A stretch of DNA of 60,100 bases, the filler included, from Hausera hauseri (Eukaryota), in the NCBI GenBank assembly GCA_046269625.1. It is 10 parts of 10 records of this genome, joined end to end, with 100 filler letters (N's around TTAATTAATTAA, not from the genome) between each part and the next. Parts side by side here need not be neighbours in the genome. Positions count along the whole stretch, not along the records: positions 22,094 to 26,677 come from JBJURY010517793.1; 9 more parts are not named here. One strand, written 5' to 3'. How positions within the stretch are numbered: the stretch's first letter is position 1; the number at the start of each line of letters is the position of its first letter. Both the position numbers and the translations under genes were made by a program. Positions 2,190-31,608 of this stretch are shown here, piece after piece. Below the pieces are notes generated by a model. It had not been told where the DNA came from. It was given only the letters and a program-made list of their open reading frames with translations, and made no database searches.

Positions 2190-2459
2190 AATTTACAACT
2201 ACAATTTGCAGTGCTAGAAATGTTGGGCATATTTTAAAATAGAATCCGAATGCTGAATGCTAAAACGTCAAGTAAAACCAAAGCTGACACTCCATTTCAA
2301 AGAAGCACGTATAAAATTTGCTAGAAACTCCATGTCTTACGATGATAAGTACAAATATGGTAATAAGTGGAACACCAACGGTTCAGACAGATTCCAGTAT
2401 TACTGGCACCATTTGCATAACTATGCCGAATTAATAATCAGTCGAAATTTGGTGGTGGT
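2190..2459 (+). pseudogene. Tc1/mariner (Tc3-like) transposase fossil, 5' part
   Basis: Reads SARNVGHILK..KRQVKPKLTLHFKEARIKFARNSM..KWNTNGSDRFQYYWHHL..SRN(F)GGG. This resembles the Tc3-type pattern KPxLTxxHKxxRLxFA..KFNLDGPDG.xYWxDLR..RRNFGGG. Frameshifted and degraded. Confidence 0.8.
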
Positions 2460-5400
2460 TGTGGTTGTGGTTGTGATTGTGGTGGTGGTGGTTGTGATTG
2501 TGGTTGTGGTGGTGGTGATTGTGCCTGTGCTTGTGCTTGTGGTGGTTGTGGTTGTGTTTGTGGTGGTTGTGGTTGTGGTGGTGGTGATTATGGTTGTGGT
2601 TGTGGTTGTGGTGGTGGTGGCGGTGATTATCGTTGTGGTTCTGGTTGTGGTTGTGGTTGCGGTTGGGATTGCGTTTGTGGTACTCGTGGTGGTTGTGGTT
2701 GTGGTAATGGCGGTGATTATGGTTGTCGTTGTGGTTGTGCTGGAGGTGGCGGTGATCATGGATGTGGTTGTGGTTGCGGTTGTGGTGGTGGTTGCGGTGG
2801 CGGTTACGGTGGTTGTGGTGGTTGTAGTTGTGGTGGCGGTGACTGTGGTTATGGTTGTGGTTGCGGTGGTGGTGGTTGTGGTTCAGTTGGTGGATGTGGT
2901 TGTGGTGGTGATGGTTGTGGTTCTTGTGGTGGTTGTGGATGTGGTGGTTGTGGTTGTGGTTCTGGTGGTGATGGCGGTGATTATGGTTGTGGTTGTGTTT
3001 GTGGTGGTTGTGCTTGTGCTTGTGGTGGTGGCGGTGATTATGGTTGTGGTTCTGGTTCTGTTGGTGATGGCGGTGATTATGATTGTGGTTGTGATTGTGG
3101 TGGTGGTGGTTGTGATTGTGGTTGTGGTGGTTGTGGTTGTGTTTGTGGTGGTAGTGCTTGTGCTTGTGCTTGTGGTGGTTGTGCTTGTACTTGTGGTGGT
3201 TGTGCCTGTGCTTGTCGTGGTGGCGGTGGCGGTGATCTTGGTTGTGGTTGTGTTTGTGCTTGTGGTGGTGGTTGTGCTTGTGCTTGTGGTGGTGGTTGTG
3301 CTTGTGTTGTGGTGGTGGTGGTTGTGCTTGTGGTGGTAGTGGTTCTGGTGGCGGTTACGGTGGTTGTGGTTGTGGTGGTTGTAGTTGTGGTGGCGGTGAC
3401 TGTAGTTATGGTTGTGGCTGTGGAGGTGGCGGTTGTGGTTGAGGTGTTGGATGTGCTTGTGGTGGTGATGGTTGTGGTTGTTGTGATGGTTTTGGTTGTG
3501 ATGGTTCTGGTTGTAATTGTGGTGTTGGTTGTAGTTGTGGTGGTTGTGGTTCTGGTTGTGGTTCTGGTGGTGGTGGCGGTGATTATGGTTGTGATTGTGG
3601 TAGTGCTTGTGCTTGTGCTTGTGGTGGTTGTGCTTGTGTTTCTGGTGGTGGCGGTGATAATGGTTCTGGTTCTGATTGTGCTTGTGGTTGTGGCGGTGGT
3701 TGTGGTTGTGGTGGTGGTGCTTGTAGTTGTGGTTGTGGTGGTTGTGGTTGTGGTTGTGGTGGTGCTTGTTGTTGTGGTGGTGCTTGTGGTTGTTGTTGTG
3801 GTGGCGGTTACGGTCGTTGTGGTTATGGCTGTGGTGGTGGTTGTTGTGGATGTGGTGGTAGATGTGGTTGCCGCGGTGATAGTTGTCGTTGTGGTGGAGG
3901 TTGTGGTTGTGGTTGTGGTGGCGGTTACTGTGGTTGTGGTTGTGGTGGCGGTTACGATGGTTGTGGTTGTGGTTGTGCTGGTTGTGGTTGTTGTGGCGGC
4001 GATGTTGGTTGTGGTTGTGGTGGTTGTAGTGGATGTGGTTGTGGTTGTGGTGGTTGTGGTTTTTGTGGTGGTGATTCTGGTTTTTGTAGTGGTGGTTCTG
4101 GTTGTGGTGGTGCTTGTTATTGTCGTGGTGCTTGTGCTTGTGGTTGTGGTGGCGGTTACGGTGGTTGTGGTTGTGCTTGTGGTGGTAGATGTGCTTGCGG
4201 TGGTTGTGCTTGTGCTTGTGGTGGTGGCGGTGATTATGGTTGTGGTTGTGGTTATGGTTGTGGTGGTGGTGGTGGTGGTGGTTGTGGTTGTGGTTGTGGT
4301 TGTGGTTGTGGTGGTGGTGGTTGTGCATGTTCTTGTGCTTCTGGTGGTTGTGTTTGTGCTTGAGGTCGTTGTGGTTGTGCTTGTGGTGGTGGCGGTAATT
4401 ATGGTTGTTGTCGTGGTTGTGGTTGTGGTTGTGGAGGTAATGGTTCTGGTTGTTGTGGTGGTTCTGGTTGTTGTGGTTGTTCTGGTTGTTGTGGTGGTTC
4501 TGGTTGTGGTGGTTAGGGTTGTGATTGTGGTGTTGGTTGTGGTTCTGGTGGTTGTGGTTGTGGTAGTGGTTGTGGTGGCGGTTACGGTGGTTGTGGTTGT
4601 GATTGTGCTGGTTGTGGTTGTTGTGGCGGCGATGTTGGTTGTAGTTCTGATGGTGGTGGCGCAGATTATGGTTGTGCTTGTGCTTGTGCTTCTGCTTGTT
4701 GTGGTTGTGGTCGCGTTGGTGGATGTGATTGTGGTGGTTGTGGTCGTGATTGTTGTGGTGGTTGTGATTGTGGTGGTGCTGGTAGATGTAGCTGTGATGG
4801 TGGAGGTTCTGGAGGTGGTAGTGGTTGTCGTTGTGGTTTCGTTGACAGTAGTTTTGGTTGTGGTGCTAGTTGTGGTTGTGGCTGTGGTGGCGGAAACGGT
4901 GGTTGTGGTTGTGGTTGTGGTGGTGGTGGTTGTGGTTGTAGTTGTGGCTGTGGTGGCGATTACGGTGGTTGTGGTTGTGGTTGTGCTGGTTGTGGTTGTT
5001 GTGGCGGCGATGTTGGTGGTGGTTGCGGTGGTGGTGGTGGTTGTGGTTGTGGTGGTGCTTGTTGTTGTGGTTGAGCTTGTGGTTCTGGCTGTGGATGTGT
5101 TGTGGTCGTGGTAGTTGTGCTTGTGGTTGTAAATGTGGTGGCGGTTACGGTCGTTGTGGTTGCGGCTGTGGTGGTGGTGGTGGTTGTGGATGTGGTGGTG
5201 GATGTGGTTGCCGCGGTGATGGTTGTGGTTGTGGTTGTGCATGCGGCTGTGGTGGTGATGGTTGGGATTGTGGTTGTGGTAGTGGTGATTGTGCTTGTGC
5301 TTGTGCTTGTGGTGGTTGTGGCTGTGTTTATGGTGGTTGTGCTTGTGCTTGTGGTGGTGGCGATGATTGTCGTTTTGGATGTGGTTGTGGTTGTAGTGGT

Positions 5401-8400
5401 AGTGGTTGTGCTCGTGGTGGTTGTGCCTGTGCTTGTGCTTGCGGTGGTTGTGCTTGTGCTTGTGGTGATTATGCCTGTGCTTCTGGTGGTGGCGGTGATG
5501 GTGATCATGGGTGTGGTTGTGGTTGTGCTTGCGGTGGTGGTAGTGCTTGTGCTTGTGCTTGTGGTGGTTGTGCTTGTGCTTGTAGTGGTTGTGCCTGTGC
5601 TTGTCGTGGTGGCGGTGGCGGTGATCTTGGTTTTGGTTGTGTTTGACCTTGTGGTGGTGGTTGTGCTTGTGCTTGTGGTGGTGGTTGTGGTTGTGTTGTG
5701 GTGGTGGTGGTTGTGCTTGTGGTGGTAGTGGTTCTGGTGGCGGTTACGGTGGTTGTGGTTGTGGTTGTGGTGGTTGTAGTTGTGGTGGCGGTGACTGTAG
5801 TTATGGTTGTGGCTGTAGAGGTGGTGGTTGTGGTTGAGGTGTTGGATGTGCTTGTAATGGTGCTGGTTGTGGTTGTTGTGATGGTTGTGGTTGTAATTGT
5901 GGTGTTGGTTGTGGTTGTGGTGGTGGTGGTTCTGGTTGTGGTTCTGGTGGTGGTGGCGGTGATTATGGTTGTGATTGTGGTAGTGCTTGTGCTTGTGCAT
6001 GTGGTGGTTGTGCTTGTGCCTCTGGTGGTGGCGGTGGCGGTGATCATGGTTCTGGTTCTGATTGTGCTTGTTGTTGTGGTGGTGCTTGTGGTTGTTGTTG
6101 TGGTGGCGGTTACGGTCGTTGTGGTTGTGGCTGTGATGGTGGTGGTTGTGGATGTGGTGGTGGATGTGGTTGCCGCGGTGATGGTTGTCGTTGTGGTGGA
6201 GGTTGTGGTTGTGGTTGTGGTGGCGGTTACTGTGGTTGTGGTTGTGGTCGTGGTTGTGGTGACGGTTACGGTGGTTGTGGTTGTGGTTGTGCTGGTTCCG
6301 GTTGTTGTGGCGGCGATGTTGGTTGTGGTTGTGGTGGTGGTGGTGAATATGGTTGTGGTTGTGGTGATTGTGGTTTTTGTGGTGGTGGTTCTGGTTGTGA
6401 TGGTGCTTGTTATTGTCGTGGTGCTTGTACTTGTGGTTGTGGTGGCGGTTACGGTGGTTGTGCTTGTGCTTGTGGTGGTAAATGTGCTTGCGGTGGTTGT
6501 GCTTGTGCTTGTGGTGGTGGCGGTGATTATGGTTGTGGTTGTGGTTATGGTTGTGGTGGTGGTGGTGGTGGTGGTTGTGGTTGTGGTTGTGGTTGTGGTT
6601 GTGGTGGTGGTGGTTGTGCATGTTCTTGTGCTTCTGGTGGTTGTGTTTGTGCTTGAGGTCGTTGTGGTTGTGCTTGTGGTGGTGGCGGTAATTATGGTTG
6701 TTGTCGTGGTTGTGGTTGTGGTTGTGGAGGTAATGGTTCTGGTTGTTGTGGTGGTTCTGGTTGTTGTGGTTGTTCTGGTTGTTGTGGTGGTTCTGGTTGT
6801 GGTGGTTAGGGTTGTGATTGTGGTGTTGGTTGTGGTTCTGGTGGTTGTGGTTGTGGTAGTGGTTGTGGTGGCGGTTACGGTGGTTGTGGTTGTGATTGTG
6901 CTGGTTGTGGTTGTTGTGGCGGCGATGTTGGTTGTAGTTCTGATGGTGGTGGCGCAGATTATGGTTGTGCTTGTGCTTGTGCTTCTGCTTGTTGTGGTTG
7001 TGGTCGCGTTGGTGGATGTGATTGTGGTGGTTGTGGTCGTGATTGTTGTGGTGGTTGTGATTGTGGTGGTGCTGGTAGATGTAGCTGTGATGGTGGAGGT
7101 TCTGGAGGTGGTAGTGGTTGTCGTTGTGGTTTCGTTGACAGTAGTTTTGGTTGTGGTGCTAGTTGTGGTTGTGGCTGTGGTGGCGGTTACGGTAGTTGCG
7201 GTTGTGGATATGGTGGTGGTGGTTGTGGTTGTAGTTGTGGCTGTGGTGGCGGTTACGGTGGTTATGGTTGTGGTTGTGCTGGTTGTGGTTGTTGTGGCGG
7301 CGATGTTGGTGGTGGTTGCGGTGGTGGTGGTTGTGGTTGTGGTGGTGGTTGCGGTTGCGGTGGTGGTTGTGGTTGTGGTGATGGTGGTTGTGGTTGCGGT
7401 GGTGGTGGTGATGGTTGTGCTTGTGCTTGTGCTTGTCGTGGTTGTGGTTGTGGTTCTGGTGGCGTTGATGGATGCGATTGTGGTGGTTGTGGTAGTCGTT
7501 GTGGTGGTGGTTGTGATTATGGTGCTGGTGGTGCATGTGGTTATGGTAGTGGTTGTGGTGGTGCAGGTTCTGGTTGTGGTAGTGGTTGTGGTTGTGCAAA
7601 TTCTGCTTGTGGTAGTGGTTGTGGTTGTGGTCGTGGTGGTTGTTGTCGTCGTTGCGGTGACAGTTGTTCTGGTTGTAGTCGTCGAGGTGGTTGTGGCTGT
7701 GCTGGGGGTTACGTTGGTTGTGGTTGTGGTTGTGGTGGTGGTGGTTGTGGTAGCTGTTGTGGTGGAAATGGTTGTGCTTGTGGTAGTGGTTGCGCTTGTG
7801 ATTGTGTTGGTGGTGGTTGTTCTTCTGGTTCTGGTAGTGGTGGCCGTGATTATGGTTGTGGTTGTCTTCGTGGATATGTTCTGGTCGTAATGGTTGTGGT
7901 GTGGTGGTGGTGGATGTGGTTGTGGTGGTGCATGTGGTTGTGGTTGTGGTGGCGGTTACGGTAGTTGTGGTTGTGGTTGTTGTTGTGGTTGTTGCATTTC
8001 TGGTTGTGGTGGTGGTGCTGGTTGTGGTTCTGGTGGTTGTGGTCGTAGTTGTGGTGGTGGTTGTGATTGTGGTGGTGGTGGTGGTGGTGGAGGTGGATGT
8101 GGCTGTGGTGGTGTTTGTGGTGGTGGAGGTTGTGGATGCGGTTGCGGTTAGACTGGTTTTGGTTGTGGTGGTAAATGTGGATGTGCTTTTGGTGGTGGTG
8201 GTGGTGGTGCTTCTTTTTGTGGCGGTGCTTGTGGTTGTGGTTGTGGTGGCGGTTACGGTGGTTGTGGTTGTGCTTGTGGTGGTTGTAGTTGTGGTTGTAG
8301 CGGTGGTGATTGATGTGGTTCTGGTGGTTGTGGTCGTGGTTGTGGTGGTGGTGGTTGTGATTGTGCTGATAGTGGTGGTGGTGGATGTGGTGGTAGTCGT

Positions 8401-10990
8401 TGTGGTTGTGGTTGCGGTGACAATAGTTTTGGTCGCGGTGGGGTTTGTGGTTGTGGCGGTGGTGATTGTGGTTGAGGTGGTGATGGTTGGGGTTGTTGTG
8501 GTGGTTGTGTTTGTGATTGTGGTGTTGGTTGTGGTGTTGGTTGTGGCTGTGGTTGTGGTGGTTGTGGTTTTGGTTGTAGTGGTTGTCGTTGTGGTGGAGG
8601 TGACGGTGGTTGTGGTTGTGATTCTGGTGGTGGTGGCAGTGATTATGGTTGTGGTTGTGGTTGTGTTGTAATGGTGGTTGTTGTGCTTGTGGTGGTAGTG
8701 ATTCTGGTGGCGATTACGGTGCTTGTGCTTGCGGTTGTGTTGGTTGTAGTTGTAATGGCGGTGACTGTGGCTATGGTTGTGGTTGTGGAGGTGGTGGTTG
8801 TGGTTGAGGTGTTGGATGTGCTTGTGGTGGTGATGGTTGTTGTTGTTGTGGTGATTTTGGTTGTGATGGTTCCAGTTGTAATTATGGTGTTGGTTGTGGT
8901 TGTGCTGGTGGTGGTTCTGGTAGTGGTTGTGGTGGTGGTGGTGGTTGTGCTTGTGGAAGGTGTTGTGCTTGTGGTTGTGGTGGTGGTGGTTCTGGTTGTG
9001 GTTCTGGTGGTGGTGGCGGTTATTATGGTTGTGATTGTGGTAGTGCTTGTGCTTGTGGTGGTTGTGCTTGTGCCTCTGGTGGAGGCGGTGGCGGTGATCA
9101 TGGTTCTGGTTGTGACTGTGCTTGTGGTGGTAGTTGTGGTTGTGGTTGTGGTGGTGGTGATGGTTGTGGTTGTGGTTGTGTTGTGGTGTTGGTGGTTGTT
9201 CTTGTGGTGGTGCTTGTCGTTGTGGTTGTGGTGGCGGCTACGGTCGTTGTGGTTGTGGTTGTGGTTCTGGTGGTGGTGGTTGTGGTGGTGGATGTGGCTG
9301 TGGCGGTGATGGTTGCAGTTGTGGTGGTGGTTGTGGTTGTGGTTGTGGATGCGGTTGTGGTGGTGATTGATGTGATTGTGGTGGTTGTGTTCGTCGTTGT
9401 GGTGGTGGTTGTGATTGTGGTGGTGGTGAATGTGGTTGTGGTAGTGGTTGTGGTGGTGCAGGTTCTGGTGGTGGTAGTAATTGTGGTTGTCGTAGTTGTG
9501 ATTGTGGTGGTGGTGCTGATGGTGGATGTGGCTGTGGTGGTGGTCGTGGTGGTGAAGGTTGTGGTAGTGGTGGTGGTGTATGTGGTTGTGGTTGTGGTGG
9601 CGGTTACGGTGGTTCTGGTTCTGGTTCTGGTGGTTGTAGTTGTGGTTGTGGCGGTGGTGATTGATGTGGCTGTGGTGGTTGTGGTCGTGGTTGTGGTGAC
9701 AGTTATTTTGGTTGTGGTCGTGGTCGTGGTTGTGGCTGTGGTGGCGGTTACGCTGGTTGTGGTTGTGGTTGTGCTGGTTGTGGTTGTTGTGGCTGCGACG
9801 GTGTTTGTGGTTGTGGTTGTTGTAGTGGATGTGGTTGTGATGGTTGTGATTGTGGTTGCGGTGACAGTTGTTTTGGTTGTGGTCGTGGTCGTGGTTGTGG
9901 CTGTGGTGGCGGTTACGGTGGTTGTGGTTGTTGTGGCGGTTACGGTGGTTGTGCTTGTGCTTGTGGTAGTGGTTGTGCTTCTGATTGTATTGGTGGTGGT
10001 TGTGGTTGTAGTTCTGGTGGTGGTGGCAGAGATTATGGTTGTGTTTGTGCTTGTAGTTGTGATTGTGGCGGTGGTGGATGTGATTGTGGTAGTGGTTGTG
10101 GTGGTGGTGTGGTGGTTGTGCTTCTGCTTCTGCTTCTACTTGTTGTGGTTGTGGTTGTGGTTGTGGTGGCGTTGGTGGATGTGATTGTGGTGGTTGTGGT
10201 CATGATTGTTGTGGTGGTTCTGATTATGTTGGTGGTGGTGGATGTGGCTATGATGGTGCAGGTTTTGGTGGTGGTAGTGGTTGTCGTTGTGGTTTCGTTG
10301 ACAGTAGTTTTGGTTATGGTGGCAGTTGTGGTTGTGGCTGTGGTGGCGGTGACGGTGGTTGTGGTTGTGGTTGTGGTGGTGATGGTTGTGGTGGTGGTGG
10401 TGGTGGTTGTGGTTGTGGTGGTGTGGTTTTGGTTGTGGTGGTGGATGTGGTTGTGGTTGTGGTGGTTGTGGTTGTGGTGGTGGTGGTTGTAGTTGTGGTG
10501 GTGATAGTTGTGGTTGTTGTGGTGCTTGTGATTGTGTTGGTGGTGGTTGTGCTTCTGGTTCTGGTAGTGGTGGCAGTGATTATGGTTGTGGTTGTGGTTG
10601 TGGTTATGTTGTGGTCGTAATGGTTGTGGTTGTGCTGAAGGTGGTTCTGGTTCTGGTTCTGGTGGTTGTGCTTGTGCTTGTGGTAGTGGTTGTGCTTGTG
10701 ATTGTGTTGGTGGTGGTTGTGCTTCTGGTTCTGGTAGTGGTGGCAGTGATTATGGTTGTGTTTGTCGTCGTGGTTATGTTCTGGTCGTAATGGTTGTGGT
10801 GTGGTGGTGGTGGATGTGGTTGTGGTGGTGCTTGTGGTTGTGGTTGTGGTGGCAGTTACGGTGGTTGTGGTTGTGGTTGTGGTGGCGATGACGGTGGTTG
10901 TGGCTATGGTTGTGGTGGTTGTGGTTGTGGTGGTAGATGTGGTTGTGGTGGTGATGATTGTGCTTGTGGTGGTGGTTGTGCTTGTGGTGT
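2451..10990. repeat. ~8.5-kb degenerate trinucleotide (GTG/GTT) satellite with higher-order internal duplications
   Basis: The + strand is almost entirely G/T with period 3. Rare marker words recur: gcggttacgg many times, and tttcgttgacagtagttttgg at 4837, 7130 and 10293. Block 4321-4890 repeats at a constant offset of 2293. Confidence 0.97.
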
Positions 10991-17790: not shown

Positions 17791-20700
17791 CAACGTTAAA
17801 CTATGAAGCGTAAAAAAATAGAGCGAAAAAATCGCAAAACGAAAAATGTTTGTGTCAGTTGAGCTTAGTGTGAGTAAGGCGTTAGGTACCTTCGACTGAT
17901 TTTTCCCTGCTATACTTGCTGAATGTGACTCTGCGTGTTGTGTCTTTATGCGATGTGTTTGTGTCCAGAGATTGAGGTTGGGGGAAAAATTCGTTAGATT
18001 TTGGTTTTGGTGTTGTACCATGCGAAGATGAGTCGGAATAAAGAGAAGAAGAGGATGAAGAAAGAAGAGGGATTGTTGAAGATGGATGGTTAAAGGCATT
18101 GAAAAGAGTGTTAGAAGACGAAGGAGTGATGAAAGATGTAGTGGCGGATAAAGGAAGATAGGAAAAAGTTGGAGTAGAGATTGGAATTGTGCTGAGTGAA
18201 AGAGTGGAAGAGGAAAATGATACAGAGGGAGTGGTAGAAATAGAAGTAGAATGTGTAGAAAATGCTGTGGCAGGACTAAGAGCAGAAGAGGAAGGTGGAA
18301 ATGATGTAGTAATAGATATAGGGATAGCAGGGAGTGGAGAAGTGAGAAAAGAGGTTGACGTGTCAATTTGTAAGGTGTAGTCGACAAAGAAAGCGGGTTT
18401 TAAGTTGGTAATGTGTATTCTAAGGTCTTTGCCGTCTTTAGAGATAATGACGTTATGTGAGTGCAGCTGTATCGGTTTATAGGGCCCCAGGTACCGTGAC
18501 TGAAAACCTGAAGGCGCTTGATTCTTTAGCCACACGAATTTTGCTAAATACAAATCTTCGGGTATGTTTTGTCTTTGTGAAGTACACTGCAGAACGAATC
18601 TTTGCTGACCTTGACGAAGTGATTTTGTACCGCTCGTATCGTCTCATCTGTGGGAGTGTCGTTTAGGGCGGTTAGTTCGAACAATGATCGTACAGGAGCT
18701 CCGAATAAGGCTTCAGTAGGTGAGCATCCTGTAGAAATTGGCAGTGTTCCGCCAGCCGAGCAGAACAAACGGAAGAAGATTCACCCAACTAGTGTTGGAC
18801 TCTGTGAGAATTCGTAGTGATGTTTTAAATGTTCGGTGGAAATGTTCTAGAAGGCCAATTGATTGGGGGTGATAAGGCGTAGTATGTATGTGATAAATCC
18901 CCAATCGGTTAACAAGGGATTTGAACAGGTTGGACTCGAACTGTGGACCCTGGTCCATGATGATGAAGAGAGGTGATCCAAACCTGCTAATCCATGTGCG
19001 AATGAAAACGTCAGCTATAGTGCCGGTATTTATGCTCCGCAGAGAAATGGCTTCTGGCCATCTCGAGGAATGGTCCATCATGGTGAGGATGAATTGATGA
19101 CCGTTGTCTGGAGGAAGAGGGCCAACGATGTCGATATGCACGGATTCGAAACGCGATGTGCAGGGAAAGTGGAATAGTGGTGGCTTTAAAGGCTTAGCTT
19201 TTTGCATTTTTGGCAAGCCACACTCACTAACCCATGACTGCACATCAAAACGCATTGACGGCCATATTACTTGTCGAAGGAGTAGACGAAAAGTGGCTTT
19301 AGCACCAGGGTGGTGTAGCGAATGTACGCTGTTGAATACTTGCCTTTGCAAGGTGGTGCAAGTATTATTGCGGAATGACCTGGTTTGGAAGTGTCAACGA
19401 TTGTGCAATACTTAAAAGAATTAAGCATGTCCTGATGTGACTAGTTCTGATGAAGTTTATCTTACGTAAAGATCGGTGAAAAATTAATCGAACTAACCGA
19501 CCTCGATAAAAAGTCAGCAACTAATTTGTTAACCCCGTTAATATGTTTAATATCGAAGTAAAATGTCGATAAGTATGATATTTGTCGTTCTTGGCGTGTG
19601 GAAGGGTGTTTCAAAGCCATGATGTTAAGTAAAGGTTTGTGATCGGTTTGTATAGTGAAATGACGAGCGACAAGTAGGTGTTAAAAATGCTTTAGAGCGA
19701 AAACGATGTCCAATAGTTCTCGATCGAACGTGGAATATCTGGTTTCAGGTGCTGTTAGCTTGCGAGCAAAAAATTCTAGAGGTTGATTTTCTCCCTTGTA
19801 GATCTGGTGGAGTACAGCGCCTACTGAAGTGGTTGACACGTCTGGAGTAAGGATGGGTTCTGCATCAGGCTTGGGGAAAACGAGAATATCGGCGGTCTTA
19901 ATTCCTTCACGTAGTTTATCAAATTTGTCAACCAATTCATGTGCCCACTGGATTGGCTGATGTTTTTTGCCGCCTTTTAGATGTGCGAATGGTGCTGTCA
20001 TTTCGGAGCAATATAGTACATATTTATGTACAAAGTGTAGTGTGCCAAGGAAGCTACGCATTTCGGTGGTCGTACGTAACAACTGGATATTTTTAAGAGC
20101 TTCGACTCGGTCTGATTTGGGGGAATGACCGTCTGGTGAAATAACGTGGCCTAAAAAGTTAATGCGTTTTTTGAAGAAATGGCATTTGTCGAAATTGACT
20201 TGGAGATTATGGTGGTTAAGACTTTGGAATGTTGCAATAAGGTGTTCCTCGTAATGTTTGGCCGAAGACGAAACGACTAGAATATCATAGATATAAGGGT
20301 GTCAAACGGGAAATCTGAGAGAATTGAATCAATGTGCCGCTGAAAAGTTTGTGCGGCATTCCGCAAACCGAATGGCATAAACAGGTATTCGTAGAGACCA
20401 AAAGGAGTAGTGGCAGCAGTTTTTTCTATGTCTTCGAGTGCTACCGGTATTTGATGGTATGCTTTAGCTAAATCAATGGTCGAATAGATGGTGGTTGAAT
20501 TAAGACTATGCAAGATATCCTTGATAAGTAGTAAATGGTACGCATCCATTATAGTCAAGGTGTTTAGCTGTCGGTAGTCACCGCATGGTCTAAAAGTACC
20601 GTCCTTTTTTGTACAACGCGTAAAGGTAATGACCAAGGAGATTTGGAACGGCGTACTATTCCGGAACGTTCTAGTTCAAGAAATTCGGTTTCTACGGCCT

Positions 20701-21993
20701 GTCTACGACGATGTGACAGAGGTCGTACCTTTTGGCGTATTGGACGTTGATGTTGTGTAACTATGTGGTGTAAAGTATTATTTGCGGGAATAAACGTACG
20801 GTCTTTTTTAAGTACGCGTGGACATAATGGGTTGACGAATTACTGTAAAGTTGTAGGTAACTTTGAGAGATTCGGTAAAAGTGGTGAAACAACTTGAGTA
20901 ATAGCGGATGAATTTGTGAGTTGTTTGGTGATGTGCAATCAAGTGGTATTTGGTGTCAGATGGTCGAATTGAAAATGGTGTTGGATGAAGTGGCTTCGAT
21001 AAATGAACCAACGTTGTCAGCAGTACCACAATTATCGACATCAAACCTCAATCAAATATCAGTATTATTATTTAAAAATTTACGAATTGAGTTATTATTA
21101 TGGAAATTCAAATTATTCATTGATTTTTTTAAGGTTGACCTTCATATCCAGGTCGACTGCGCGGTAGTCGAAATGCTATTGACATATCCAGAAATGTCGC
21201 CAGTGGTGCCGTTCCTTAAACATCGCTGACTGCAGTCAACCAGTAAATTATAGTGTGAGAGAAAGTCGGATCCTAGAATTGCCGTCTGAATGTTAGCGAC
21301 TGTGAACGTCCAGTGGAAAGGTGAAGGAAAATTTGGTAAAGTGAAAGATAATTTAGCCATGCCAGAAATGTGCAGCGGTTGGCCTGAAGCGGTGTATAAG
21401 GGCTTAATTCTGAATGGTGAATTTTGTACAGAAAAGGTTTGCGGTAATAAAGAAATTGCTGCACCTGTATCGATGAGGAAATCAACAGATTGTGTTGAAG
21501 GAGCAGTGATTGCAGCCTTTAGAGTAAAGACAGCAAAAGAGACGTGTTGGCGTTCAGAAAGTGAAGTAGTGCCTTTGCCAGAGTTTGCCGTGACTTCTGG
21601 CGGCGAACTAAGTTTTTTTGAAAGGGTGAATTAGGACGACTAATAGAAGGAAAGGTAGTACGTCCGTCGTTTGTAGTTGATTTGAATGTGCAGCCTAGAG
21701 TACGTTTACGAGCTTGGTTTTTGAATCTTGCATGGTAGGTGCAAACAACGGTGCCCGAGGAAAAACTTTTGTTATAGAATTTTCACCCTAGGCAGCACTT
21801 CTGAGCATTAGTGTTAAATCTGCTGTGGAAATAGCAAATCGACGAATGCACAGGCAACGGTAAGCGGTTTCTAGACGCAGAACGAACGCGGTCAGCGACA
21901 AAATCCCTCCGGCGGAACAGGGTGAGTTCGCTTAGTTTATTATTAATATTGTTGATTGTTGCGTGTAGTGCAATATTTTCAGCACGTAGCTGA
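17791..21993 (-). mobile_element. Ty3/Gypsy family A, decayed internal region: gag 3' end, PR, RT, RH, IN, S/T/P-rich tail
   Basis: Twin CxxH knuckles near 21.7-21.85 kb. FLIDTGAAISL. RPCGDYRQLN..IDLAKAYHQIP..MPFGLRNAAQTFQR. YIDD mutated to YIYD. RYSTFDRELL. HIDIVGP..DQGPQF. YLGPYK. Many stops and frameshifts; cut by a spacer. Confidence 0.95.
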
Positions 21994-22507
21994 NNNNNNN
22001 NNNNNNNNNNNNNNNNNNNNNNNNNNNNNNNNNNNNNTTAATTAATTAANNNNNNNNNNNNNNNNNNNNNNNNNNNNNNNNNNNNNNNNNNNNTTTTAAA
22101 GTGTTTATTTATCCATTATTTAAACAAATTAAAATAAATAATAATTTGCTTATTATTTATTTTTGCTGCTTCATTACTAACCTAATTGTCAAAATTATTC
22201 ATTAAAGTTGTAAAATTCAATATTCCTGTTTAGTGTGTTTGAGGGAATAGCATTGTAATTTATGTGGTTTGTATTCATGTTAATTTCACGTTTTGTTTTT
22301 AAATCGTTCAAAGTTGTAAGAATCAGTCGCATGCCCAAAGGGGAATCTGACTTCAAGAATTTTTTTCATAGGATTTATGGCCCAATTTATTTTATTTATT
22401 TATGTAATAATAACTTTTTAAATTTTTGTAATTGATGAATAAATTTGAAATTTACAAAAATGTCACAAAAAGTGCCGAATAACGGAATGCACAGAAAAAA
22501 GGGAATC

Positions 22508-22655
22508 AAATTGAGAAAAAGTAAAATTAAAGCGAGGAAAAGTAAATTCAAACTGAAAAATAGTAAATTCCAAATAAGAAATAATAATTTGAAAACTAGA
22601 AATAGTGAAATTACACTAAATTACTGAAATTTCAAAGTGAGCACAATAAATAAAA
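22508..22655. repeat. Degenerate A-rich 21-bp minisatellite, ~7 copies
   Basis: aaattgagaaaaagtaaaatt / aaagcgaggaaaagtaaattc / aaactgaaaaatagtaaattc / caaataagaaataataatttg / aaaactagaaatagtgaaatt ... Confidence 0.7.
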
Positions 22656-23607
22656 TCTGAAAATTTATTAATTACATCAACACAGTTTATACTAAGAACT
22701 CGAAACACGAATACTAATTGAGAAGTTAAATTTAAATAAGTAACAAAGAAGTTTAAAGACATGAACGAATGGAAAATGTCACTGAATCACATAGAATAGT
22801 ACGCAGTTTTAAAGACAATTAACACAATCAAATCTTCAGAAAATTTATTAATGATTTTAATTTTATTTTATGAGAAAGTAAAAAAGATCAGTTAATAACG
22901 AAATGTTCAATAAAGAAGTATTTGAAGTAAAGAAGTTTTTGAAGCCAAGAAACAAGAAAAGTTATGCTAAGTATGAGTGAATCACACGTGACATTTTGCC
23001 GGTGTTATTCTATTAATTGCATCATTTGTAACTTCCAAAAACATTTGAACGGTGCTTAGCCATAGATGAACCGTTTCGATTAGTCAACTGATTGTTATAT
23101 ATTTGTTGAGCAATATTCGGATAAGCTAGACTAAATAAAATTAAAAAGTGTATTGAAATAAAGTAGATAAAAATAAGCTGACTTTAGATGTTTATGTAAT
23201 CTACTATACCTCAAAAAGTCGTGAACACTTAACAAATTTAATATAATTTCAAATAGGAAGCTGTATAAATGAATTTGCTGCAACATTCATATGAAANNNN
23301 NNNNNNTGGTACAATTAATATTAATTGTATTCAACAATAAAAACAATAATTGCACAAATGTAATGTATGATTGTCACATTCAGTCTTACCATATTGTTTG
23401 GTCCGAAAAATTCTTAGCAATTTGCCGATTGATTAATGTATATTAATCTTTCTAATCGCACAGAAAATTCAGTTATTTTAATATCAGTGTACTGGCGATT
23501 GAAATACACGTCCAAAGTTTGGAATATATTTTGTCATTTTCTCAGAAATTTGTTTCCTATAAAATTATTTATTAGGACACGATTCTAAAAACAAAGTTTA
23601 GTTATTG

Positions 23608-24731
23608 TGTAACGTCCAAGAGTCATAAATGAGAATATCGCCCCTATTAAGGACTTTGGACGGTTCGTACGTGTGGTGCCCACAGCGGCCGGTGCCCTTT
23701 TACCCATTTAGTTGGGCACGGCCGGGCGTCCGTTGCCGCCGCGTCGGGTACATAGTTGGGTCCCATTCTCCGCCTCGAACATTCTACAAGAACTTCAATA
23801 AATGCATTAAGTACATCTACTCTTTCTCCTTCCTCACAATTCTCTACTTCAAACTCAATAACCTCATCGTCAATATCAGTAAGTACTACAACCAAAAGTA
23901 TGTTGTGAATTAGGAGTAAAAGTGCAACCGAATGTCGATCGAAACCGAAATGTAAATATACCGATTGAAAATCGGATTTCGATCGAAAAACATTATCCAA
24001 ATAAACAATATTGTAAATTAACAGACGGCACAAACTGTAAATATACAAATCTAAACGAATTAAAGTTGAATCACAGTGTAAATATTGTTTAAAAATTGAA
24101 ATAATAATCGCGAAACTCGGGAGAAAAGGAGATAAACAACGGTTGGTTACTATATAAGCTGACGATTAGAACGATATAGATAGACTGTCGTGAAGTCGCG
24201 AAAGTTACGAAATTTCAAAATTATTCAGACGTGAGAATTCAGAAGGATTTCGAAATTCGAATTAGTCAGTATTAGAACTGTATTATTCACTTTATTCGTG
24301 AACTGATTTTCTTGTCTTGTTGGACAATTCTGATTATTGAACTGTGCTTAATGGTGTGGTATATTTTGTTTGTATTTAATATATCTTGTATTCTAAAATT
24401 CTTTTATAGTTTTTCGTCGCTCTTTAAGAGGGACTAGAACAACCCTAAGGAATAAATTATTTTATAAACTCAATAGTTAAGACTAGAATTTTGTAACTAT
24501 ACATTCATTGCACGCAGTACCTGCAAGATAAAATAAGTGCAAACATTCTAACGAAAACGTTAGAACTTATCTGCTTACAAATAACTATCTAAATTTTGAA
24601 ATTATTCATTGTTATAGTTGGGTGCTGGATAGGGCCCACCTTCAACTACTAACACATGCATACATCAATCCTAGAAAGAGGATTGCAAATACCAATGAAC
24701 ATCATCACGGACTTTCGCTAAAGGTGTTATA
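23608..24731 (+). mobile_element. LTR of family B (long LTR), interrupted by a family A LTR
   Basis: Starts TGTAACG. TATA (ctatataag) at 24150. Collinear similarity to the minus-strand LTR at 25389-26244 (TCAGTATT, TTTATTCGTG, TATAGTTTTTC plus hairpin, CAGTACCyGCA, TAACGArAACGTTA). The 3' end (TGTTATA) is tentative. Confidence 0.6.
23672..23890 (+). mobile_element. Solo LTR of Gypsy family A (~219 bp)
   Basis: Termini TGTGGTGC...GTACTACA form an imperfect inverted pair. Internal AATAAA near 23797. The first ~110 bp match the LTR starts at 17774 and 59000. No TSD found. Confidence 0.72.
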
Positions 24732-24732
24732 A

Positions 24733-25388
24733 GAACCGGAAGATGAAAAAATAGTACGTCACGAATTAGCTAAATATCTGTACGGATATACAATAATAAA
24801 TGCCAATACAAGTACAATCCTTAAAATATTACGTATCCCAATGGAAATAATTTATGGCATACCTGATTTATTGGCAGTATCAAATACCAAAATTAGATTT
24901 GCTGAAATGGTGCTGAAAATTAATCTAACGCAAGTCACAAAAATTTATGGAATTCACCAAGATTTTCCAAAAGCAGTAGAATCAATAATGAAAATGATAA
25001 TCAAGATTCAAACCGGAATTATAAATTCATGTTCCAACGAGAAATGGGAATTCGAATGGACACCTCCAACTAACAACGTAATAGACAATGGCTCATTTAA
25101 GAAGATTAAAGGTACCTATCATGAAAATTATAAAGAGGAACAATTTCAATTAATAGTTCTTGATGAAAATAAAAACCAAGCAGCTATAAACAATTTAAAG
25201 ATTCAAACGGATAAAATATTAGGTAAAGTGAAAAATCCTCAAAAAATTCTTAAAATGGAATTATCCATAATAATATTCGGAGACGTTAACCAGATCTTAA
25301 ACCTCGAATATCTTCCTGAACCAACGGTGACGGTAAATGAAAATAACCAAATAACACCAAATCTCATTCGGAAACATAGTCGGTATAG
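24733..25388 (+). other. Intronless open frame of unknown function (~218 codons) lying between two family B LTRs
   Basis: Stop-free from 24733 to the boundary of the minus-strand LTR, with A-rich coding bias. No recognisable motif. Confidence 0.45.
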
Positions 25389-26259
25389 TGTATAAAAACA
25401 CAGTCCACAACACCTTACATTTAGCAGGGATCGGTACACATGCAGACACAGTACGAAAAAGGCATGATAAACCTATATTGACAAAGCAACTGTTATATAT
25501 TGGGGTGGCCCTTAACGATCTCTCACTATATAACAGTAATTTACTCTTGAATTCGATCAACTTATGCAGATTCGATTTAACGTTCTCGTTAAATGAATGT
25601 GCCAATATGTGATGATTTTAATAATGCGGGTACTGTTTGCCGTATCCTGTGCACGGTTTAATTAATAGTCTTGTACCTATGTAAGTTAGAGTACGATTTT
25701 ATCCTTATTGTTGTCAAACCGGCCTTAAGGGCCGGTGAAAAACTATAGGGAATTTTAAAACCAGAAGAATTTACTACTTACAGTATAATTGACCGATACA
25801 CGTAATAAGTAACACGAATAAATAAACGTCAGATAAATTCGAATACTGAATTGCAAATAGATTTCAAAGCTCAACGATCTTTTACTTCGTCACACTAATA
25901 GCTTCACCAACAGGAATTTTCTACTTTTTACTTTTACAACCGACTCCTAAGTCGATACAAAAAATGTTCTCCTTTGCTATCAGAAACACCGGTTTATATA
26001 ATGCCCGTTCCATGTAGGCGTCATTTTAATTTACATTTTCTACCGACTAAATCTACTGCCACACATTATTTCAGGTTAATGGCATTTATTGGCATTTATT
26101 TGCTAATCAATTTCTAATATGAATACACAGAATAATCTACCGTATGGCATTTACAGAAACCTAAACTATTTATTTACATTTATCAGCTGCTTCTTCCTCA
26201 TGGGCTTGGCTACAGTCGATATCGATCGACTGGCTTTTTCTACAACATTTCTCCTCCCT
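25389..26259 (-). mobile_element. PPT plus complete 3' LTR of family B (25389-26244, 856 bp)
   Basis: Minus strand: PPT AGGGAGGAGAAA (26259-26248), then TGTAGAAAAA...TTTTTATACA (9/10 inverted termini). TATATAAA near 26000. Confidence 0.75.
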
Positions 26260-26677
26260 GAGCGACATCCTCGGATGTGCCCATTGCGTCAGGAGAGGTG
26301 GCGCCGCGTGATCTAGGGTCTCTTAGCCGGTCCATCCTTTCTTGTAGGTCTGATGGGGAGTCTGATCTATCTCGGCTCGTTGAGGGACTGGTTTCAAAAC
26401 AATAACTATAATGAGGTTTTATTCTAACCACTCGAGTATAACTTCCATTTGAATAATATTTTAACTCGGTGGCTTCTGCGCGGCACACTGGGCACGTGGT
26501 TTTCCCGTTATCTAGGGTCCATTTTTCTAAGCAATCCCTGCAATACTTGTGGCGGCAATTCTTATTATCTAATATCACGTACCCTTGTTGCAGGTTTGCT
26601 TCGCATACGGGGCATTCATTTTCTTCCTTACCCCAATCATCTCGATCTAAGTCAACTTGGATTACCACTTCGATTGG
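26240..26677 (-). CDS. C3HC4 RING-finger ORF, 5'-truncated by a spacer; retroelement-borne
   Basis: CPVC-x15-CRHKYCRDC-x12-CPVC. Intronless. The last codons run through the PPT into the LTR. Confidence 0.8.
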   Translation of the reverse strand, partial: PIEVVIQVDLDRDDWGKEENECPVCEANLQQGYVILDNKNCRHKYCRDCLEKWTLDNGKTTCPVCRAEATELKYYSNGSYTRVVRIKPHYSYCFETSPSTSRDRSDSPSDLQERMDRLRDPRSRGATSPDAMGTSEDVAQGGEML

Positions 26678-30276: not shown

Positions 30277-30464
30277 TGAAACCGGACAATACTTACGATG
30301 CATATCATACATTTCATTAAAGCCGACAGGTTATTTAGTCAATATTTGTAATCAATGTTATCAATTGTTAGTAACAAACTTTATTGTATTTGATGGTATT
30401 AAATACATTGCAAGTATTATGAAAGAGATTAGTGAACAGCAAAATATTAGACGGTTAATTACAG

Positions 30465-31608
30465 AATTTCAAACAACACTATTTTGGTCCAATGCGTTAC
30501 CGGTAATCGGCCATGTACAGTGATAATGATGGATGAATGTGAAACGACTGACGACATCAAAAAAATCTTATCCAACACAATTAATGAAGGAGACATCATT
30601 CTCATCAAAAATCACAGATTGATAACTAAAAGTGAAAAGATTAACGAATCTACGGATGTATTTGACTATGCAGTTGTCCATGATAAATTATCTGATGTAA
30701 ATATGGATAATATAGAATTGGGTAAAGGGTCTTATTCGACTGTTCGTCAATGCCAAATCAAAATTAATGACGAATTAAAAATAATGGCCATGAAAATAAT
30801 TCAAAATGATCCCGAGTTACGAACAATTCTCAACAACGAGATTATGGCAGCATCAAGAATAGGAAAACATAAACATATTGTCGAATATCACAATTTCTAC
30901 AAGGTTGACGACTTTTCCTACATTCTTATGGACAAAATGGTGAAAATAATTATGTGACTTTGTCGATGAATTTCATGTTGTCATTAGGAACCATTGACAA
31001 ATCGATTTAACCAACTAAAGCAAGATGAAATAATTCATTTGTCCAAAGAAGTTCTAATTGGTCTCATGTACCTCCATAATCATTCAGTATTTCATGGAAA
31101 TCTCAAAGGTAAATTGAATTGCCGACTTGTCGAATGCGAATTGATCTTTAGCATCGAATATTTTACTGGCCAATGAAACAGTCAAATTGTCGGATTTTGG
31201 CAGTTCCAAATATGGAATTGTGCAGAATTTTAGACGAGGTAAAATAAAGGAACTTCCTTCTGGTATCGTCAATTGGATGGCTCCAGAATTGATTGACAAA
31301 TCGTCGATTTCTGATAAATATAAATCTGATATTTGGTCGTTTGGGGCTACTTTAATCGAGATTGTGACCGGTGAATAGTTATAAATGGCTGAATGTATTT
31401 ATCGTACTGTTCTGTAGGTGTTCCACCATATCCTGATCTCGAACCATTTGTGATTATTGACAAACTATGTCAGACAAAGAAAATTGAATATGACATTTCA
31501 GTAACATTGAACAAGAACTTGACAGACCTTATCAATTTATGTTTGACTGGAGATAACGACAAACGACCGACAGCACAAAATTTATTGGACAAAGACATTT
31601 ATAAATGA
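30465..31608 (+). CDS. STE-group-like protein kinase domain (probable pseudokinase), spliced; 5' end uncertain
   Basis: GT-AG introns 30940-30987, 31109-31151 and 31371-31417 join LGKGSYSTV, AMK, NE, HGNLKASNILL, KLSDFG, NWMAPE, SDIWSFG, GVPPY and RPTAQNLL into one frame ending at TGA 31606-31608. Confidence 0.88.

Follow-up and report, generated by a model that had tools for sequence, protein, structure and literature searches.

A predicted RING-type ubiquitin ligase with a dead exonuclease domain in a Burro-like Ty3/Gypsy element of Hausera hauseri

The genome of Hausera hauseri (assembly GCA_046269625.1) contains a high-copy Ty3/Gypsy LTR retrotransposon (Metaviridae) of Burro-like type, whose last open reading frame (ORF) ends in a C3HC4 RING finger. 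We propose that this RING is the C-terminal domain of an E3 ubiquitin ligase of ≈800 aa whose dead exonuclease domain would direct it to targets bound to RNA or DNA, and we give this reading a probability of about 0.55. The window analysed here is a stretch of 60,100 nucleotides made of 10 parts of 10 records joined end to end; the RING frame lies directly before an LTR on one of these parts.

The RING frame and its junction with the LTR

The features of this contig, in window positions, are the following:

22094–26677: whole contig JBJURY010517793.1, 4584 bp
26240–26677, minus strand: 3′ end of the accessory ORF of ≈800 aa, 145 codons and the stop
26483–26614, minus strand: C3HC4 RING core with eight zinc ligands, the loop-1 Val, the helix Trp, the loop-2 Pro and the Arg after the last Cys
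26248–26259, minus strand: polypurine tract (PPT), in frame with the ORF and forming its final codons
25491–26247, minus strand: 3′ LTR, 757 bp, TG...CA
22094–25490, no strand assigned: flanking DNA beyond the insertion, outside the element

The first-pass annotation had described an uninterrupted C3HC4 RING frame that runs through the PPT into the LTR and ends GGEML*, and this is what we find, with 145 open codons on the minus strand (26677–26240) and the spacing C-x2-C-x15-C-x-H-x2-C-x2-C-x12-C-x2-C. The frame has no start codon because the contig terminates inside the ORF at 26677. It matches the Pfam families zf-RING_2 (E 4.3e-10) and zf-C3HC4 (E 3.6e-8), both above the cut-offs. The Val, Trp, Pro and Arg listed above stand at what we take to be the E2-contact and linchpin positions of the RING. 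A stand-alone RING ORF, as had been supposed, is not what the sibling copies contain, since in these the RING takes up no more than the final ≈145 aa of an ORF of ≈800 aa.

On the far side of the LTR, the likeness to other copies ends at ≈25490, and the bases beyond it vary from copy to copy. Within the LTR itself, ≈300 bp at the 3′ end are conserved while the 5′ two-thirds are variable. The 5′ part (window 26247–25800) diverges strongly even among copies with a flanking ORF that is >90% identical. The flank on the LTR side also holds a 220-codon open frame (24733–25395, plus strand) without a significant Pfam match. Elsewhere in the window we noted a long degenerate GT-rich triplet repeat with a periodicity of 9–15 bases (≈2400–10900), a broken Gypsy-type PR-RT-RH fragment (19681–21782) on a contig separate from that of the RING, and intron-split frames (30451–31608, plus strand) that by eye resemble a protein kinase gene.

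The RING is repeated many times in the genome. Its DNA gave 1246 candidate matches, 40 of which were scored and had 74–100% identity, and its protein gave 3494, of which 150 were scored. A purine tract followed by TGT was found at the same place in all 30 loci fetched, and the RING frame stops one or two codons into the LTR in 43/43 distinct junctions. The PPT-LTR junction with the RING is common to hundreds to thousands of copies. Most copies of the family are decayed. The view that the RING belongs to the element holds: it is a multi-copy sequence, and each copy checked has it directly ahead of this LTR.

We also surveyed 47 distinct LTR ends. Twenty-two of these have a PPT upstream and unique flanking sequence, nine are followed by a primer-binding site (PBS), 13 have no detected PPT or PBS and are solo-LTR candidates, and three were unclassifiable. 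Four of the nine with a PBS have a PPT as well and represent tandem copies. Such tandem copies with one common LTR, in the order ORF end-PPT-LTR-PBS, were seen at L021, L042, L049, L098, and L102. Target-site duplications of 4 bp were present, as a raw count, at 3/13 solo-LTR candidates. Exact matches to the PBS motif number 468, against none for a control motif, and a primer tRNA for it was not found in 8/10 loci scanned. In this fragmented assembly no single contig showed two LTRs on one full-length copy; the 5′ and 3′ junctions were observed on different contigs and in the tandem copies that share an LTR.

An alternative is that the RING is an exon of a host gene next to a solo LTR, or a passenger in neutral drift. 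The window shows a single LTR, and host genes often encode RING domains. This reading is at odds with the hundreds to thousands of copies that have the same PPT-LTR junction, with the PPT, rather than a copy of the 3′ flank, that precedes the LTR in the window, with the true solo LTRs with 4-bp duplications that occur elsewhere (3/13 candidates), and with dN/dS values far under 1 (see below). We consider its probability negligible. The PPT-TGT junctions and the survey of LTR ends led us to reject a solo LTR next to a host exon; neither this nor a single-copy RING without linkage to this LTR elsewhere, the two outcomes that the first-pass annotation had named against its own proposal, was found.

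Architecture and class of the carrier

No gag or pol of this family could be made out in the window itself, as had been noted; both were found on other contigs and are of Ty3/Gypsy type. At L129 an LTR end and the PBS are followed by a 2268-aa frame with gag, a CCHC motif, a ubiquitin-like domain and a Monjiviricetes fusion glycoprotein (PF24664, E 2.9e-66). The ubiquitin-like domain between gag and env matches PF00240 with E-values of 4e-4 to 6e-4, which is below the curated cut-off. Contig C16676 carries the ubiquitin-like domain, env, RT, RH, IN, the last ORF, the RING and the PPT in one run, and contig C52218 likewise carries the element through to the RING. The env is upstream of RT on single contigs and lies in frame between gag and pol. 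Pol has the order RT-RH-IN according to Pfam, and its best match in the PDB is Ty3 Gag-Pol (E 1.5e-106). A protease could be recognised upstream of RT by eye in the RING-bearing family and by Pfam in a sister family. Summing the distances from two copies (L129 and C16676) gives an element of ≈16–17 kb with LTRs of ≈0.75 kb.

Past the integrase come a predicted membrane protein, a single TGA and the ≈800-aa ORF. The predicted membrane protein (P0002, residues ≈817–1293) is of type I and continues the polyprotein, with a signal-like segment, an ectodomain of ≈400 aa without a Pfam match and a transmembrane helix. A similar layout after the integrase is seen in the metagenomic relatives L162 and L164 and in the sister families. 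The polyprotein holds two predicted membrane proteins. The first-pass annotation had placed the RING in the env position. A true mononegavirus-type env is present before pol, and the RING ORF is therefore no env replacement. We also found no hydrophobic segment in the accessory protein (P0003), and only RING families matched it in Pfam.

In a quick RT-IN tree of 40 rows, which contains no named Burro sequence and from which rows aligned over <560 residues had been dropped, the family sits on a long branch and clusters with six unnamed rows (SH-aLRT 85), of which five are env-before-pol and one is truncated. Giant Gypsy-like elements with ubiquitin-related cargo have already been described as Burro (PMC6431247). 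According to that review, Burro (GYPSM1 of planarians) has a gag CCHC knuckle, a long helical region and a ubiquitin/SUMO-like domain, a fusion glycoprotein of mononegavirus type that is encoded in frame between gag and pol, accessory ORFs, cargo related to ubiquitin and a very high copy number (PMC6431247), all of which are shared with the present element. Burro is >30 kb (PMC6431247), whereas the present element is ≈16–17 kb. Among the accessory ORFs given in the review there is neither an exonuclease nor a true C3HC4 protein (PMC6431247). Burro-2 to -4 may still carry a RING. MATH, BIR, BCL2, ankyrin and dUTPase, the cargo of Burro1, had no Pfam match in the frames scanned, which include part of the env-to-protease stretch. 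The 'RING Zn-finger' motif of Burro AIR1 presumably reflects gag knuckles. We call the carrier Burro-like rather than Burro because the size and cargo features of Burro are not matched.

The accessory protein, its relatives and its expression signals

The ≈800-aa protein has a double-stranded β-helix, an ISG20-like DEDDh fold without catalytic residues, an unassigned domain and the RING, in this order. The structure model is confident for residues 41–400. Within these, residues 227–398 match ISG20 (Foldseek E 3e-8; VIA Z 17.2, rmsd 2.8, 157 aligned), and residues 44–194 match AlkB/cupin-type β-helix folds more weakly (Z 8.7, rmsd 3.5, 139 aligned). Pfam did not detect the nuclease domain in the RING-bearing family, and it was recognised through relatives and folding. 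The ExoI Asp and Glu and the ExoIII His and Asp are missing in 45/45 copies, which leaves the ExoII position as the sole acidic catalytic position (36/45 copies), while the ExoI Asp is kept in 10/13 outside relatives. Judged by these residues, the domain appears to be catalytically dead and is referred to as a pseudonuclease.

A variable linker of ≈100 aa separates the pseudonuclease from the RING side of the protein. The domain directly before the RING folds poorly (mean pLDDT 54) and its fold lists are filled by RINGs; such a weak model is, in our view, no evidence for a new fold. The RING model matches E3 RINGs with Z about 6, and the equine herpesvirus RING 1chc is a weak match. The ORF has no transmembrane segment but a conserved basic KRRK-like patch, which may be a nuclear signal.

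Among 1.84 billion representatives searched, there was one full-length homologue (P0005) and 12 that match the N-terminal half only. P0005 has 41% identity, contains the RING, shows the same domain order and also ends GGEML, which is known from the protein alone. No shorter homologues of residues 540–800 were present at E ≤ 1e-6 among 314 candidates, and no relatives of P0005 were found in viral contigs.

Pairwise dN/dS across 47 copies, a check that the first-pass annotation had proposed for the RING, gave 0.05–0.08 for the RING core, 0.06–0.13 for the pre-RING domain, 0.11–0.23 for the pseudonuclease and 0.28–0.49 for the linker, values that are indicative because the copies were gathered by RING similarity, which biases dN downward, and because the pairs are non-independent. 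For the RING core pN is 0.07 against a pS of 0.78, with 707/1081 pairs saturated at synonymous sites. All eight ligands and an absence of stops are found in 35/47 distinct copies, and 45–46 of the 47 retain the loop Val, the helix Trp, the Pro and the Arg that follows the last Cys. These figures are indicative of purifying selection on the RING.

The N-terminal module has relatives without a RING. In the metagenomic L162 and L164 the order is env-PR-RT-RH-IN, and the module lies behind it in an ORF of its own, where the DEDDh domain is intact and a RING is missing. The RING-less metagenomic frames with intact DEDDh are:

L162: 9917–11302
L164: 9959–11446
L163: 151–1653

Other families in the H. 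hauseri genome carry the β-helix/exonuclease module with 23–37% identity to a RING-less metagenomic relative. None of the 33 sister-family frames examined has a RING motif, and in five long frames of these 33 the module is in frame with pol. The catalytic residues are missing in all nine aligned RING-less sister frames of the same genome. Several divergent families (L185, L186, L187, L188, L189 and others) have the β-helix and a dead exonuclease in one frame with pol; L185 has the order env-PR-RT-RH-IN-membrane protein-module. Most complete frames of the divergent RING-less families likewise end at the purine tract-LTR junction.

The RING lineage and P0005 grouped with a support of 100 in an unrooted quick tree. 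Judged from these sequences, the RING appears confined to one lineage, P0005 included, because the relatives carry the same module without it. The death of the nuclease is not tied to the gain of the RING, because 9/9 RING-less sister frames are dead as well. Pseudonuclease and RING may act independently of each other across the variable linker.

Signals for two modes of expression are found around the start of the ORF. At the pol junction, TGA is present in 21/23 copies and is directly followed in 17/23 by CARYYA, a known motif that promotes read-through (PMC4132726). The frame from the stop to the ORF is kept in 20/23 copies, 15 of them without an indel and five with a 3-base deletion, and is shifted in three. 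Synonymous diversity is 0.09–0.16 in codons 1–40 and about 0.3–0.6 elsewhere. A stem-loop is predicted from 12 nt after the stop; its z averages −2.6 over the first 15 of the 24 copies, compared with 0.0 and 0.4 for the controls, and it shows little covariation. Just before the ATG position of the accessory ORF there is an acceptor-like pyrimidine tract with AG, which is seen at the same place in 20/20 sister frames examined and in L162 and L164. The conserved acceptor together with the TGA-CARYYA/stem-loop cassette suggests two expression routes.

In seven copies, the 520 bases that follow the PBS contained no clear splice donor. Contigs of two sequencing runs contained the element and no splice-like joint, and are uninformative on expression. 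A donor-like GTAAGT is found 4 nt after the acceptor in 23/23 copies (L101, P0003 codons 33–37). A micro-exon holding the start codon is one possibility, and the motif could also yield other products. A second island of synonymous-site conservation lies in the pseudonuclease region (L101, P0003 codons ≈316–331), with only a weak predicted hairpin; it may be a cis element. A splice acceptor at this island was considered and found to be without support.

Proposed function, alternatives and known systems

In the proposed mechanism, a spliced subgenomic RNA made via the acceptor before the ATG would give the main, soluble protein, and read-through of the TGA of pol would give a minor, membrane-anchored form. 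The dead exonuclease domain would bind nucleic acid and carry the RING to RNA- or DNA-bound targets, and the RING would recruit an E2 and place ubiquitin onto target proteins. The parts of this mechanism differ in strength. The RING quite probably binds an E2 and works as an E3. Nucleic-acid binding and targeting by the dead nuclease fall slightly short of an even chance. We tentatively name a host silencing or restriction factor, and not the element's own proteins, as the candidate target, at clearly less than an even chance. The poorly modelled pre-RING domain could be the real substrate adaptor.

Instead of host factors, an active ligase might modify the element's own products (Gag, Env, the post-integrase membrane protein or itself) and so affect budding, sorting or copy number. 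Ubiquitin is used in retroviral budding, the polyprotein carries its own ubiquitin-like domain besides two predicted membrane proteins, and a fixed partner would fit the strong purifying selection, since nothing in the RING region points to rapid change. However, sister families and metagenomic relatives of the same layout spread without a RING (0/33 frames), and the RING is therefore not needed for the core cycle, which makes this alternative unlikely in our estimate. A different emphasis would make the read-through form the main product, as a type I membrane ligase with cytoplasmic pseudonuclease and RING that removes a surface receptor or sensor. The signal-like and transmembrane segments before the TGA speak for it, as do the kept frame, the stem-loop and the TGA-CARYYA, CARYYA being a promoter of read-through (PMC4132726), and the sister families in which the module is in frame with pol. 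Yet an acceptor-like site stands ahead of the module in every lineage examined, L162 and L164 with their separate ORF among them, while the accessory ORF has no transmembrane segment and its KRRK-like patch may be a nuclear signal; we rate a mainly membrane-bound ligase as quite improbable.

Most doubtful among the functional alternatives is a RING that serves as a non-catalytic scaffold or E2 decoy and oligomerises or titrates host ubiquitin enzymes. Both domains of the N-terminal half have the folds of enzymes, and catalytic residues are gone from the nuclease, so the protein may act by binding alone, but every canonical ligand and E2-contact position of the RING is kept. The ligase carried to nucleic-acid-bound targets is our preferred reading.

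PML also has a RING. Its isoform 1 contains a nucleic-acid-binding pseudo-exonuclease and limits LINE-1 by proteasomal loss of ORF1p (PMC13659232, PMC10123124). Compared with the accessory protein, PML has the opposite domain order and a TREX-like nuclease and is host-encoded and anti-transposon. We draw an analogy and claim no homology. As an analogue, PML can model how the pairing of a pseudo-exonuclease with a RING might work. One could go further and predict that a captured ISG20-like nuclease lost catalysis and gained a RING, becoming an anti-silencing weapon with soluble and membrane forms and a mirror of PML. Such a protein would seek out Piwi or restriction complexes of the host on the RNA of the element and destroy them. 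We regard this extension as speculative and on balance improbable. Herpesvirus ICP0 and K3/K5 are viral RING E3 ligases used against host restriction. They belong to DNA viruses and their ligase activity has been shown, whereas the activity of the present protein is predicted.

Among retroelements, Juno and Vesta of bdelloid rotifers are Gypsy-type and likewise have an ORF of the 3′-5′ exonuclease family downstream of pol (PMC5408684). Their ORF3 is a DEDDy exonuclease with intact catalytic residues, whereas the present domain is of DEDDh type, dead, and set between a β-helix and a RING; the main text of that paper has no occurrence of RING (PMC5408684). The env-like ORF of SIRE1 also follows pol past one in-frame stop and involves stop-codon suppression, as proposed here, but SIRE1 is a plant Copia element for which the source describes no RING or nuclease cargo (PMC3414828). 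Our literature search, which had Grohme et al. 2018 and Repbase outside its scope, found no retrotransposon RING ligase and no pseudonuclease-RING ORF in an LTR element. The env-before-pol type of carrier and exonuclease cargo are known already; for the pseudonuclease-RING ORF in an LTR element we found no published case.

Little is settled about the ways in which LTR elements of animals oppose silencing by the host, and the role of the ubiquitin-related cargo of Burro is described as a hypothesis awaiting test (PMC6431247). The present family provides a compact system for experiments, with a canonical RING under strong selection across many copy lineages and a natural series around it, in which the nuclease is active without a RING, dead without a RING, or dead with a RING. 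Should the protein prove to be a true E3 that acts on a host protein, it would be the transposon-encoded counterpart of the viral counter-defence ligases.
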